64,000 nt of DNA, taken from the NCBI GenBank assembly GCA_004022145.1, contig RCNU01000003.1; one strand, written 5' to 3'. Positions within the stretch are counted from its first letter, which is position 1. Every line of letters starts with the position of its first letter. Both the position numbers and the translations under genes were made by a program. This document shows positions 1 through 39,966 of this stretch, piece by piece. The notes under the pieces are model-generated. The model made no database searches and had not been told where the DNA came from. It worked only from the letters and a program-made list of their open reading frames with translations. This stretch comes from Paecilomyces variotii (lineage: Eukaryota).

Positions 1-474
1 TGTATGTGAATCTGGGCTTTTATACCAGGTCCTGGCTCGGAGACATATCGGATACTTCTGATATCGTCCACGATGGGCCCCACTCCAGCTGCAGTAGTAT
101 CTGCTCTCCAGATGCAGATGGCCCTGGTAAATTATCCGTGTAGCCTAGTTTGGGCTCAAAATGTCTGCTGCGATGGCAGAAAAAAGCAATAAGGAGGGGC
201 TTTTAACTTTTAGTTCGAGGATGTACCATATGTAGTTCCACCAAGGTAGCAAGGTGGCATAGCTCCCTTTCTGAGCAAGTAAAGGACGTCTTCGACTACC
301 CTGTTTATTCACGTATTTGGTATCAATCACGAATTCGTTGGCTCAGAAATGGGGAAGTAAGTTACTCCGTTTTGAGTCTGTTGCGGCTCGACAACATCAA
401 CCATGTCAACCTACCTATGGGCAACAGCAGTCTACTACTCGACTACTCCGGTGTTTGAGACACAAAAAAACAAG

Positions 475-494: not shown

Positions 495-659
495 CGTCAG
501 CGACAGGATTCGAACCCTGATTGGTACATGTTAGTTTATCTTGTTTTTTTCTGTAATTCAGTTCGAAGTAGACTTACTGTGCGGGCGAACCCATTCGATG
601 TCTACTCCTATCATAGATAGTATTCGAGTCGAACGCCTTAACCACTCGGCCACACTGAC
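495..659 (-). tRNA. tRNA-Ser(CGA) interrupted by a 23-nt canonical intron (622-600) and a 61-nt spliceosomal-type intron in the T-stem (577-517)
   Basis: Spliced sequence (81 nt): GTCAGTG-TG-GCCGAGTGGTTAAGGC-G-TTCGA-CT(CGA)AA-TCGAA-TGGGTTCGCCCGC-ACAGG-TTCGAAT-CCTGT-CGCTGAC-G. It has a 7-bp acceptor stem, D-arm, perfect anticodon stem, long Ser-type variable arm (GGG-TTCG-CCC), perfect T-stem and discriminator G. A box TGGCCGAGTGG, B box GGTTCGAATCC, and a T-run follows. Confidence 0.93.
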
Positions 660-2671: not shown

Positions 2672-4966
2672 CTAAATCACCGAAGATCCCAACAACACAC
2701 ACCCTGTCAACCAAGCAGGCCACCAAACACACCAGACAACGACCTGCGTCCACATTCCCCACACATCCCAACCGAAAGCTGCTTGCGTGAGAACAACAGA
2801 TACAGGAACGCCCGTATACCAGCACGTAGCTATGAAGACTGCTGGGGGAGAAAGCAGGTTCATGACGAGAAAGCCTATCGTGGTGAGTGCGTATCTGATT
2901 GCTGGGGGCGTAGATTCCGGGTTGATACGGCCGATGAAGCTCAGCGGGGTGCAGAGGAGGCCGATCATGAATGATAGGGAGAAGTTGATGGTGGCGAGGG
3001 CGGAGAGGAAAAGGCCCAAGAGGAGGAGGGAGAATGATTTGATCAGGAGGTATTGCTGAGATGTAGGGACGGAGCTGGGGGCGTATTTGAGAAGGGTTGA
3101 TATGAGAATGGGCAGGACTGAGTTGAGTCCGGCGAATGCGTAGGTTGCTGTGGTGAAGTGCTATACGTGGAGGAATTAGTTTAGATGGTCCCAAAGGGTT
3201 GTTTTATAAGACGTTTATTAGATTAGACACTTACTTGGTGGGAAAGATTGTTGAATATGTAGAGAGGGATGACGCCGAGGAAATGGAGGCCGATGACTGA
3301 AGTCAAAGGTAGCGCTAGCTGTCGTTCCAGGATTCCTTCTACTTCTCTTTCCCCTCCAGTAGCTCCTTTCGCGGACTCTGGCGACTCTTTCGACTCTTTC
3401 GACTCTTTCGACTCTTTCGACTCTTTCGAGTCGGACGTCTTGTCTGCAGGAGTGGCAGGTGATGCAGGTATATCTGTCCGATATCCACTGAGGTTCCACA
3501 GAGCAATGGCCATGACAGTGAAATTGACCGCGATCAGCATCGCACTGGGAAGATACGTTCCAATACTGACGAAGCGATTTGCCTGCATGAGCAGGTAGAA
3601 GAAGAAACTCTGATGCAAGTGCTCCAGCAGGTTGTTCAGACTCCGACAGAGACTCTCGACCGTCCTGCCCAATGCCATCTCATCCTGCCAACCATGGCCT
3701 TTCGTCTGGAGAGTGATGGCATCGATGTGGTATGGCATGAAGCTACTATGAGCTCCCGTAGCATAGCCAAGACCCTGTTTGACCATTCCTCTGAGAATCG
3801 TCTGCAGGCGCATCTTATAGCTGTCGTCATGATCCCACATCTCCTGCAGGTTGGCACCGATGCCCATCTGTCCGCTGGCGATTGAAACGGCGGTGTTGAA
3901 GAGATCCAGGTTTGGTAGTTGTCCATTAACACCGTCATAAACAATATGAAGCGTTTCGAAGGTCCAATCGAATGGATATTCAATGACCAGTGCACCTTGC
4001 AGCGCACCACTCTTCAACGGCAAAGGCTGGACAGACGACGGATGCGTATCATGGTATGCATCAACCCAGGCCTTGGTACCTGATTCACTATCCGGGGGGA
4101 TCACGAATATGATATCCTTCGACCACAGAGACCACCCTAGTCACGTTCTGTCAGCAAAGCCTAGCTCATAGAAGACCCGCAAGACACCTCACTCTTAAAG
4201 TATCTCGCCAATGTCAAAGCGAGAGTAACTCCGTTTAGATTCAATTCACCATCCACGGTCCTCCAAGGAGCTACGAGCACGATGGCTTCGGTAGCATCTC
4301 CGCGTGGAGCATGGATAATCGAATAGATGTTCTGCCCCTTATGCACGATACCGGCGGACTTGTATTCGTAGTTCTGAGTCGCAACCTTCAGGCCAGAGGC
4401 GCGAAAGATGGACTGTAACTTCTCCGATACCCTGTATTCGATCATCACAACCATTAGCCAAAGCCCTTCTGGAGTTGTCACCCTACCAGTCTGAGCATGG
4501 GTTGAACGTACACGGGCGACGTCTCCCCTCCTTTTCCTCCTTCTGGTCCACTATCAACCAACAATCCCTCGAGCTCCTTCTTATATCCACGAAATATATG
4601 CTGCTCGCTCCCAGCAAAGTATGTATGTACCTGTCCCGGGAGCAGCGCGTTCTCGGATATGTAGGTCTGTCGCGAATACTCGTCGAGCGGGAGGAGAAGG
4701 AGCCAAATGATTCCGACGACGATACAGATCAGAGACACGAATGGAGTTAGGCGCGTGAAAATGAACTGAGGATTGCCCCGCAAATTGCGGAGAGCCGCTG
4801 GCGCTGTAATATTGTCAGCTTCTTTCTATCCAGAACAGAACCGTTATGGGGGTTGATTGCGGAGGGGACGACAAGTGGTCGTTGAAACGAAACAACAGCA
4901 CTTATGCCGTAAATCCACAACATTGGCATGATGAACAAGGAATTCACACTTACATATGAGCGCCAT
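2672..4966 (-). CDS. GAA1: GPI transamidase component Gaa1, multi-exon
   Basis: TYISENALLPGQVHTYF, HAPRGDATEAIVL, GVNGQLPNLDL, LNNLLEHLHQSFFFY and a multi-TM C-terminus; short first exon ATGGCGCTCATAT|GTAAGT. Confidence 0.93.
3382..3429. repeat. 9-bp coding minisatellite (CGACTCTTT)x5 encoding SKE repeats in Gaa1
   Basis: Perfect tandem copies; protein reads SKESKESKESKESKES. Confidence 0.9.
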
Positions 4967-23374: not shown

Positions 23375-25383
<2,009 letters not shown>

Positions 25384-31045: not shown

Positions 31046-32352
31046 GATGAATTTACAGTATAGGATGTTTTGGGATCTCACTTGAAGGAAAGGAATCAAC
31101 CGGATGGCGGTGATGCGGGGTGGACTTAAAAGGCCGATGAGGGGAATGCGCGTCGGAGAAAGGGCAATAATGTGAGATGGGTGATCGAAAAAAAGAATCC
31201 GACCGAGGCAGAGGGCGGAATCGAACTGGTGCCACTGGCTGCTCGGGAAGGGTACTTAAGTCACTTTAGGGGTTTCCTGTGTGAGGAGTGGGACGACCTA
31301 GCTCAGAATCCATTTCTTGCCTTTTACCAGAGATGGCCGTGGGTCGCCCACAAAACTCCTCTTCAGCAATCTTTGGAATCCTACTGTCGACACAGCAGTC
31401 GATAATTTTATTGTTTTTGTTTTTTATTCTTGTAGTCTAGTGTCTGGAGATATGCTTTCTTTTTTCTTGATTTTCAATTAGGCGTATTTGGAAAGATATG
31501 CAACATTTTGTGTTCTCGGGTGCGTGCCGATAATTGAAAAAACTCCGTGTGATTATGACTCTATACTACATACAGTCCAACACAGAACAGAGACGACAAT
31601 AGACCATATGACTGGACACTGTGCCAATATGAATCCATTTTCTAAAACCTAGTGTTCCAATTTACGTGTTTTCTTCCTCCTCTAGTACCGGGACATAGAT
31701 AAAAAGAGGTTCTTTGGCTTCTCAAAAGCTTCAGCTGCAAGGACGCAAGCCGAGTCTGGATTATTAAACACTATATCTAACTACTGCCGTTGCCTGATGG
31801 CTGGTAGCCCTCCTGTCACTGTACTTTAGGCTATGTTCCAAAATGAATTTTTTTTTCCGTTCCAATACGTCCACAGACCGCATCTGGATTCTCGTATATC
31901 TAAACATCGCAAATCCAACTATTTCTCTCGAAAGCACTAATCGATAACTAGTCTAGGTATTGCATAAAGTACAATCGTCCACAGGATGGATATTGTTCTC
32001 CTGCCTTTCCTCCATACGCGTGAGATCAATAATAGAGGGTCCTAGTAGAAGTATCTTGCCTGGGGAGCTGGATGATACCATGACGTTCCGTATTTACTAA
32101 GAACATCACTATCTTCTATATACATTTAAATTGTCTGCCTTTCTACAGTAGAGATATAGCGCCCAGTCTGTGACTTTTACGGTTATTTTGCAGTTGCTAT
32201 ATGTTGATTTTCTCGAAATACTTCGCAAAGGTTTCGTAGGGGACTGAATTACAGCTAAGTATTTTATTTCCCATAAATCGATATGTGCCCTAAAACATCA
32301 AGCCTTCGAGTACTGGCTCAGTTCTTGACGCCCTAAACGGTTAAGGATAGTT

Positions 32353-37916: not shown

Positions 37917-39966
37917 ATGTTTCTGTGCCCCAGATGCATTGTTTCAAAGTCCATAAGACCAAACATTCGCGGTCTTTTATTACCTACTTCCTTTCAGCGG
38001 CCGCTGTCGACATTGTCGACTAGGACGCCCCGTTTAACCCGTCAACCTTTAATCGCAAGCCGTCGCAATTTCCAAGCTACTGCGAGACAGTCAGATGCGT
38101 CGATAGAAACTCAACCGCCACCAAACAAGCCGCTAGATTTGGATAAAGAGCTGCTCCCGATATGTTGCCCAGGCTGTGGCGCATATTCTCAGACGATAGA
38201 CCCGAACGAACCTGGGTACTATAGCATGACAAGGAAGGAGACTCGCAAGCTTTTGAATAAAACGAAACGTCTCGCTGAGGAGAAGGATAAACTGCTGCTG
38301 TCGCCTGCGATAGAAACTTCAACCGGGAATCAGGATGCTGCTTCCGAGCCTGGAGCAAAAGCGGTCGAGAATAATGTACCTAAACCTGCCCGTAAGTACA
38401 TACTTTTCCCTTGATTATTTGGATTGGTCTTTTCTCTAACTAGAAACTATAGACGGTGCTCTAGTGAAAGAAGATGTGGTTGTTGCAAATGCCAGCCGCT
38501 ACGCTGAAGAAACCTCGATACCCTCGCCGGTTTGCGACAGATGCCATAACCTCGTTCATCATAACCAAGGTGTCGCAGCACCGGCGCCCACAATATACTC
38601 CATCCGCGAGCTGCTCGACGAATCTCCACATAGACGCAATCGCGTTTACCATGTCATCGATGCGGCTGACTTCCCGATGTCCCTGATACCGAACATATAC
38701 GATGCGCTTTCCCTGCAGGGTCAGCGCTCGAAGAATCGTAGGGCGAAAACCACGAAGTATGTCTCCGGAAAACTACAAACCACGATAAGCTTCATTATTA
38801 CACGGTCAGATTTGCTGGCTGCTACCAAGGAGCAAGTGGACTCGAAGATGAACTACATACGGGATGTGCTGCTCAATGCTCTTAATCAAGATAAAGAGGA
38901 TATCCGTTTCGGCAACGTCCATATGATCAGTGCCCATCGGGGCTGGTGGACAAAGTCAGTTAAAGACGAGATCAGAGAACATGGGGGCGGTATCTGGGTG
39001 GTGGGTAAAGCTAATGTAGGGAAGAGCAGCTTCATCGAAGTCTGCTTCCCGAAGGACTCAAAGAACCTAGAAAAACTGGCAGACCTCTTGGAGCGCGATC
39101 CGCAGCAATTCCTCAATTCCGCACAAAATAACGAGCTTCCCCTACCAGACGAAGACAGTTTGTTGCCTCCAGCACCTCGTGAAGATCTATATCCTACACT
39201 TCCAGTTGTTTCGTCGCTGCCTGGAACGACAGTGTCACCAATTCGGATCCCATTCGGACACGGCAGGGGAGAGATGATCGACTTGCCAGGCCTTGAGCGT
39301 GAAAGCTTGCAGGAGTATGTCCGTGAAGAATATAAATCGGATCTCATCATGACCAAGCGTGTGAAGCCTGAGCGGATCACCATAAAACCTGGCCAATCAC
39401 TTCTTCTTGGTGGAGGGCTCATCCGAATCACACCTGTTGATGTTGATGATGTCGTGATGGCCGCTTGCTTCTTGCCTATCGAAGCTCATGTTACCAGAAC
39501 AGAGAAAGCTATCGAGGTCCAGGCCGGTGCGCGGGCGTACGCTGGCACGAACATCATCAAAGAAGAGGCCAAAGCCACCATATCGTCCGCTGGGATCTTC
39601 GAACTCAAGTGGGATGTGACCGATAGCCATCTTCCCCGGTCAGCCAAGAAACTCCTGGAGGATCAGGGTATCCCGCCTCCTCCACTTCCGTATAAGGTCT
39701 TGTCAGCAGATATTCTTATTGAAGGATGTGGCTGGCTTGAACTCACCTCACAAATCCGAGCCAGAACGACACCGGGGGTGTCTAAAGGATTTCCGAGAGT
39801 CGAGATCTTCAGCCCACGCGGAAAACACGTCGGGACTCGATCTCCGATGGAGGCTTACGAGTTCATCGCCCAAAAGAAAGTCTCAGATAAAAGGAAGAAA
39901 GGCACCCGTCCGGCTAGGCAGAACATCAGTCAAAAGAAGCGGGCAAGCCATGCGTCTAAACTTTGA
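37917..39966 (+). CDS. GEP3: Mitochondrial circularly permuted GTPase Gep3/Mtg3, 2 exons
   Basis: CCPGCG...CDRCH zinc motif, IDAADFP, TRSD (G4), ISA, GKANVGKS (G1), PGTT, DLPG; Arg-rich presequence. Confidence 0.88.

Follow-up and report, generated by a model that had tools for sequence, protein, structure and literature searches.

Complementarity between the two inserts of a tRNA-Ser(CGA) gene of Paecilomyces variotii and its possible origin in local DNA copying

Spliceosomal introns are described in fungal genes for non-coding RNAs, namely U6 (transcribed by polymerase III; fission yeast and others), the U1, U2 and U5 snRNAs and rRNA, and the excerpted text of this source presents the introns of the snRNA and rRNA genes as short, with canonical 5' splice, branch and 3' splice sites and a sequence that is otherwise unconserved (PMC5855946). 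Multiple tRNA introns, and ectopic ones outside position 37/38, are reported in the excerpt of a second source from Archaea, Cyanidioschyzon merolae and the nucleomorph of Guillardia theta, where the tRNA endonuclease cuts these ectopic introns at a bulge-helix-bulge (PMC3978253). In the literature searched, no tRNA gene was described as carrying a spliceosomal intron; the texts covered included excerpts of two general reviews on the processing of tRNAs and on their introns.

Analysis of a 64,000-nucleotide stretch of P. variotii DNA, here called the window, revealed a tRNA-Ser(CGA) gene with two inserts on the minus strand (659-495; 165 nt in the genome, 81 nt without both inserts). Exon 1 (659-623, 37 nt) is followed, directly after position 37, by a canonical tRNA intron of 23 nt (intron 1, 622-600); exon 2 (599-578, 22 nt) is followed by a spliceosomal-type insert of 61 nt located between T-stem positions 51 and 52 (intron 2, 577-517); and exon 3 (516-495, 22 nt) completes the gene, all of these features lying on the minus strand. 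The gene is similar to the ectopic-intron tRNA genes in carrying more than one intron, one of them outside 37/38, but intron 2 differs from the ectopic bulge-helix-bulge introns in having GT...AG borders and a CTAAC branch site and in lacking such a motif. Like the introns of snRNA and rRNA genes it keeps its signals around a variable middle; unlike in those cases the host is a tRNA gene that also bears an endonuclease-type intron, and to judge from the sequence two machineries would act on one small RNA. The two-intron tRNA gene is an unusual object, and the helix that its introns can form with each other probably does not count as a separate feature.

The segment 659-495 scored 29.3 bits against the Rfam tRNA model, whose gathering score is 29, and ARAGORN called nothing on the genomic form of the gene. 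Following deletion of 577-517 in silico, ARAGORN called tRNA-Ser(cga) with a perfect T-stem and a 23-nt intron in the anticodon loop, and the call was obtained with or without intron 1. The deletion rebuilds the 5-bp T-stem ACAGG/CCUGU exactly. The ARAGORN call and the boundaries place intron 1 at 37/38, one base 3' of the anticodon, and once the introns are removed the exons form a cloverleaf with the correct anticodon loop. Standard tRNA finders miss the gene; since ARAGORN is blind to the genomic form, genomes of this kind may be credited in error with a lack of tRNA-Ser(CGA).

Comparison with an uninterrupted gene informed the exon borders. When metagenome contigs were scanned for an exact match to 29 nt from exon 1, a single locus, L001, came back, and the doubly spliced 81-nt product (in silico) aligned with its tRNA-Ser(CGA) over 81 nt and without gaps. 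This intronless gene (3517-3597 of its contig) is useless for covariation. It lies on a very AT-rich, eukaryote-like contig and is identical to the window exons in the D-arm, anticodon arm and T-loop, the differences falling mainly in the acceptor stem, variable arm and T-stem. The sense strand of the window gene contains no TTTT, and T-runs of 11 and 7 (485-464) come after the gene on the same strand, so that a polymerase III transcript through both inserts is possible. Pairing of intron 2 with the trailer in RNA would require a transcript that extends beyond these runs. We infer that both inserts are spliced out.

Intron 2 begins with GTAAGT, the fungal consensus 5' splice site (577-572), carries the branch site CTAAC (534-530), whose branch A (531) is 14 nt from the last intron base, and ends with CAG, a YAG-type 3' splice site (519-517), all three on the minus strand. 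GTAAGT, CTAAC and CAG/YAG occur together in 2 of the 127,878 61-mers of the window. The other such 61-mer (38392-38452, plus strand) adjoins an ORF at 38464-39966 and is presumably an ordinary protein-gene intron; its 61 nt are a normal intron length in the window, where the short introns bear fungal signals. A search with the end of exon 2 plus GTRWGT gave 0 matches in genome contigs and 0 in viral contigs, both being non-fungal collections that are uninformative on fungi. Intron 2 was also considered as a bulge-helix-bulge intron, and no such motif could be drawn at its borders, where the lone 4-bp candidate pairs GUCU with GGGU through three G-U pairs and reaches into exon 3. Elsewhere the window contains a U5 spliceosomal RNA gene (31283-31399, plus strand; 75.5 bits against Rfam RF00020) and a CRAL-TRIO protein (23375-24583) whose nearest clusters are in Ascomycota.

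The two introns are complementary to each other over 9 bp. Arm A, GGAGUAGAC, comprises the last 9 nt of intron 1 and ends at the tRNA endonuclease 3' cut site (608-600, minus strand; letters of that strand, GGAGTAGAC). Arm B, GUCUACUUC, comprises nt 5-13 of intron 2 and overlaps positions +5/+6 of the 5' splice site (573-565, minus strand; letters of that strand, GTCTACTTC). Together they form a contiguous antiparallel duplex of 9 bp, of which 8 are Watson-Crick pairs and one is G-U, with a duplex energy of -12.6 kcal/mol. The letters and the duplex computation agree with the original prediction, which had claimed precisely this intron-intron pairing, and the coordinates agree with its claim that the helix covers the endonuclease 3' cut region and +5/+6. 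The prediction further held that the 22-nt middle exon is looped out; exon 2 is indeed looped, but the loop measures 26 nt, made up of the 22-nt exon 2 and GUAA.

Shuffling of both introns (mononucleotide) produced a helix of at least 9 bp with at most one G-U in 55 of 3000 trials, and the observed energy was reached in 81 of 3000. With GTAAGT, CTAAC and CAG held fixed, the corresponding numbers were 34 and 44 of 3000, and under a wider null, in which any helix of at least 9 bp anywhere in the precursor was counted, 72 of 1000 shuffles qualified. The helix does exist in the sequence; set against chance it is mildly unusual, and taken alone it is not compelling. A 9-bp match arising between a 23-nt and a 61-nt sequence by pure chance, with no common history or function, is a doubtful explanation which nevertheless has numbers behind it, in that such helices appear in 1.1-2.7% of shuffles of the intron pair and in 7.2% when any precursor helix is allowed, and in that this helix was picked from many features screened in the 64-kb window.

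Folding was computed with nearest-neighbour models, which work without tertiary contacts or pseudoknots. The helix was present in both the minimum-free-energy and the centroid structures of the double-intron precursor, with pair probabilities of 0.99-1.0 for the six core pairs and 0.27-0.70 for the three outer pairs. By nesting it is incompatible with the anticodon stem and with the T-stem, and in the double-intron precursor the anticodon stem had a probability of 0.002 and the T-stem of at most 0.001; a constraint that combines T-stem and helix crosses itself, and the energy computed for that pair is meaningless. The free ensemble had an energy of -44.6 kcal/mol vs -30.9 when the cloverleaf was imposed. 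At prefix lengths of 66 and 82 nt the model gave the anticodon stem with an intron hairpin, and at 95 nt, once arm B had been made, it gave the helix. When intron 2 was removed in silico the best fold was the ordinary pre-tRNA shape. Set against shuffles, the whole precursor gave a z of -1.09, 29 of 200 shuffles folding equally well, i.e. it has no extra stability, a value that also suits the chance explanation. Folding of the precursor, which had been proposed as a check on the helix, made the helix dominant in the models and left the precursor as a whole no better than its shuffles.

In ordinary eukaryotic pre-tRNAs the 3' part of the intron is usually base-paired, with the 3' cut site next to the paired region. 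The gene without intron 2 behaves in a similar manner, its best fold pairing U33-C34 with the G and A that intron 1 carries at its 3' end. The double-intron precursor departs from the ordinary pattern, the partner in the helix being a second intron 26 nt downstream and the helix competing with the anticodon stem.

These models could be read as evidence for a functional helix, in which a non-cloverleaf fold would hide the endonuclease 3' cut site, the spliceosome would act first, and the outcome would be ordered splicing or a quality checkpoint. The presence of the helix in the minimum-free-energy and centroid folds with a core at 0.99, its exclusion of the anticodon stem and T-stem, the switch at 95 nt of the prefix, the usual pre-tRNA fold after removal of intron 2, and the finding of inter-intron helices this long in just 34-55 of 3000 shuffles all speak for such a role. 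We nevertheless consider it unlikely, since a near-identical variant described below keeps 5 of the 9 pairs with no compensation, arm B is accounted for by the 3' flank, of which it is part of an inverted copy, and the T-stem insert of 61 nt should itself delay recognition by enzymes that depend on the mature tRNA shape, so that the helix would not be needed to impose order. Such enzymes require the elbow to be intact, and the T-stem insert alone should impose the same order. A more specific proposal, improbable in our judgement, is that the gene would need two unrelated splicing machineries, the spliceosome for the T-stem intron and the tRNA endonuclease for the canonical one. It treats the helix as a lock under which the 3' cut site and the middle exon would stay hidden until the spliceosome has taken out intron 2, no half-processed tRNA being offered to the endonuclease or to export. 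A functional helix would be the first cross-talk of spliceosomal and tRNA-endonuclease splicing within one small RNA, which the evidence makes unlikely.

Public sequencing runs provided a natural variant of the gene. The search listed 24 rows, of which 16 contained part of the stretch and 8 of these 16 were recorded as RNA; four RNA-library runs from three studies (X2, X3, X6 and X7), all of them represented by Logan contigs, were aligned to the window. Runs X2 and X3 carried the window form, showing no difference over 501-661 in contigs of 744-5198 nt that extend into the flanks; their libraries have very long contigs (up to 176,133 nt), and carry-over of DNA is possible. The bins at 380-491 are uncovered since they were skipped as repeats, and they do not mark a transcript end. 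Runs X6 and X7, metatranscriptomes from two other studies, gave short contigs that cover only 501-667 and lack window-type flanks. These contigs matched 569-606, 569-667 and 501-534 with 0 differences and diverged between 535 and 568, with 8 unmatched letters before 569 (X6 and X7) and 42 behind 534 (X6).

The copy represented in X6 and X7 is identical to the window in its exons, in intron 1 and in the 8 bases upstream, and none of the variant or window contigs showed a difference in the exons. In intron 2 of the variant the first 9 nt and the last 18 nt, including the branch site, are kept and the middle is different. Nucleotides 10-13 of intron 2 are AACG in the variant vs CUUC in the window, which leaves 5 of the 9 contiguous pairs (GUCUA/UAGAC) and an energy for the shared part of -3.8 vs -12.6 kcal/mol. 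No compensating change was present in intron 1 of the variant in the X6 and X7 contigs; a palindromic X6 contig has, in one of its arms, an extra A behind 606, inside arm A. The variant is known from contig ends only and, as one relative, is a weak test of conservation; within this limit its sequence argues against a requirement for the 9-bp helix. The original prediction had suggested that the helix orders or couples the two splicing steps and had pointed to compensatory changes in relatives as a sign of it. The folding models allow such ordering, but the one relative available, known from contig ends, retains 5 of 9 pairs at -3.8 vs -12.6 kcal/mol beside an unchanged intron 1, and lends the suggestion no support.

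The variant may be an allele, a paralogue, or a copy from another or sister species. Its kept signals and swapped middle fit what would be expected of a working spliceosomal intron. Because everything around the variable middle is identical, the pattern would fit a replacement event rather than gradual drift.

The same contigs bear on the alternative of a disabled tRNA gene. The insert in the T-stem would then never be removed by splicing, the locus would not have two introns, and the pairing would have no meaning at the RNA level. No RNA contig joined across either insert in 4 of 4 RNA-library runs, as a disabled gene would have it, although contigs, with exons of 22-37 nt, cannot show absence; the silence of ARAGORN on the genomic form and an Rfam score of 29.3 barely at the threshold of 29 point the same way. 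Set against these are the restoration of a perfect 5-bp T-stem and of a full tRNA-Ser(CGA) upon removal of 577-517, the presence of GTAAGT, CTAAC and CAG at the right spacing (2 of 127,878 61-mers), the retention in the variant of both ends of intron 2 (5', 9 nt; 3', 18 nt with the branch site) around a middle that differs, the unaltered exons in all contigs, and the short contigs from the RNA libraries X6 and X7, which cover the gene and not its flanks. We give a disabled gene only a slim chance.

Some contigs contain strand switches. In X7 one contig (record 12) joins 667 on the plus strand to 534 on the minus strand and continues as the reverse complement of 534-506, and in X6 a near-palindrome (record 11) has both ends at 577 and turns at 659/641. 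These switches could derive from snap-back cDNA of a structured RNA (5' ends at 667 and 659), from a de Bruijn branch between spliced and unspliced forms, or from a rearranged locus, and none of the three is drawn on as evidence here. Runs X2 and X3 (records 3 and 5) also contain a second sequence that matches exon 1 over 623-661 with 2 differences and is then unrelated at the place of intron 1; the X2 copy lies inside a 19.5-kb contig. It is probably a tRNA-Ser gene from some other organism, or else a paralogue that carries another intron.

Pairwise alignment showed that arm B (573-565) falls within a longer inverted copy of the 3' flank. Nucleotides 4-43 of intron 2 (574-535, minus strand, about 40 nt) form a gapped inverted copy, with a local alignment score of 33, of the segment 429-480, which on its plus strand reads much like intron 2 in the sense direction and takes in the T7 run together with a portion of the T11 run. 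The copy comprises an exact AGTCTACT block, a TCGA block and an A-rich block of 20 nt, the latter with 18 of 20 matches and facing the T-runs after the gene (repeat pair I1; I11 is a second pair). The inverted copy was scored by pairwise alignment, MAFFT having misplaced the first intron-2 block. Dinucleotide shuffling attained a score of 33 in 1 of 1000 trials and, in a second run, in 0 of 500. Among 2220 other segments of the window none attained it (best value 32), nor did any of the 26 segments whose A-run is 7 or longer (best value 28); the score stems partly from an A-run opposite a T-run, and the margin over the best unrelated segment (32) is just 1. The first block alone was equalled by 33 of 6341 segments.

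The motif found in arm A is itself clustered at the gene, with GGAGTA/AGTAGAC motifs in the two flanks as well as in the two introns. GGAGTA occurs at 24 sites in the window, 4 of which fall within 344 nt (363-706; sites at 363, 444, 603 and 701), all on the sense (minus) strand of the tRNA. GGAGTAG has 3 of its 9 window sites at 443-706, and AGTAGAC has 3 of its 7 at 430-606, within 177 nt. The window-wide totals of these motifs are not above those of shuffles, and the excess is therefore local. It could stem from repeated local duplication or represent a binding site. This clustering, locally far in excess of expectation, with GGAGTA at 4 of 24 sites in 344 nt of one strand and AGTAGAC at 3 of 7 in 177 nt, together with the position of arm B inside a longer inverted repeat, counts against pure chance. 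Chance had been among the explanations offered at the outset, and it stands in so far as 1-7% of shuffles yield the helix when this is taken alone, but fits less well with arms that lie in a clustered motif and, in the case of arm B, in a longer inverted repeat.

A direct repeat of about 30 nt also surrounds the gene. The copy in the 5' flank (711-681, minus strand) holds GGAGTAG and the copy in the 3' flank (453-425, minus strand) holds GGAGTAG and AGTAGAC; their alignment score of 26 was reached by 1 of 500 shuffles. The two copies lie approximately 22-52 nt upstream and 42-70 nt downstream of the tRNA gene. The repeat could be what is left of an ancient tandem duplication that included the gene unit.

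Of the explanations considered, the one we rate most likely, at about even odds (probability roughly 0.5), is that the helix is a scar or by-product of this local DNA history, unselected as an RNA element. A fold-back or template switch would have copied the 3' flank (429-480), inverted, into the 5' two-thirds of intron 2 (574-535), and the copying would have happened either at the birth of the insert or in a later conversion of its middle part. On the sense strand the motif GGAGTA(G)/AGTAGAC is common to both flanks and to the 3' end of intron 1. Since intron 2 holds an inverted copy of the flank, and the flank shares its motif with the end of intron 1, complementarity between the two introns follows automatically. 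From the pattern of these sequences we infer a template switch as the mechanism. The original prediction had mentioned a fold-back event creating the second intron, with the helix as its scar; an inverted copy was indeed found, but its partner is the 3' flank (429-480), and intron 1 merely shares a motif with it.

Under the scar reading, a precursor of the window allele that still has both introns can probably adopt the helix. The endonuclease would act only after the helix opens or after intron 2 leaves first, and the anticodon stem and T-stem would then form. We read the wait that the helix would impose as a tolerated side effect. Several points weigh against a scar: in the models the helix is the dominant feature of the precursor (core 0.99), the motif in intron 1 still needs an older repeat or a coincidence, the score of the inverted copy barely exceeds that of the best unrelated segment, the comparison has a single relative seen at contig ends, and the 5-bp core beside the 5' splice site is kept in both forms of the gene.

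Templated mutation at quasi-palindromes is a process in which an imperfect inverted repeat is perfected by copying of its other arm through fold-back template switching. The present locus resembles such a correction in that the window allele agrees with the inverted 3' flank at 18 of 20 positions in the middle of its intron 2 and the variant differs in that very part with identical surroundings. The likeness is one of pattern, and either the window allele or the variant may be the derived form.

The sturdier point is the tRNA gene itself, whose T-stem houses an intron of spliceosomal type with consensus signals. Between near-identical copies the middle of this intron varies and the signals stay the same. 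In its resemblance to the 3' flank in inverted orientation, intron 2 offers a concrete, testable picture of the birth or remodelling of an intron by fold-back copying of neighbouring DNA, and so bears on the old question of the source of new spliceosomal introns.

The remaining comparisons between the gene and its flanks were at chance level: the alignment score of the gene with the 3' flank in direct orientation was reached by 188 of 500 shuffles, that of the gene with the 5' flank by 310 of 500 in direct and by 465 of 500 in inverted orientation, and that of the 5' with the 3' flank in inverted orientation by 367 of 500. A search of the window for a dispersed family of the 24-nt flank motif, with at most 3 mismatches, found the query alone, and a search with a spaced pattern found nothing in the window, not even the two flank copies, because the spacing differs between them. 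A near-palindrome of similar flavour, GGAAGTAAGTTACTCC, is present in the 3' flank (353-370, plus strand). At least two further haplotypes of the 5' flank were identified in the RNA-library contigs, over 632-763 in X3 (records 6 and 7) and over 569-780 in X2. One haplotype has differences at 690 and 712 and the other at 662, 703, 708, 717 and 733. Position 703 lies within the GGAGTAG of the 5' flank, and this copy of the motif is not invariant.
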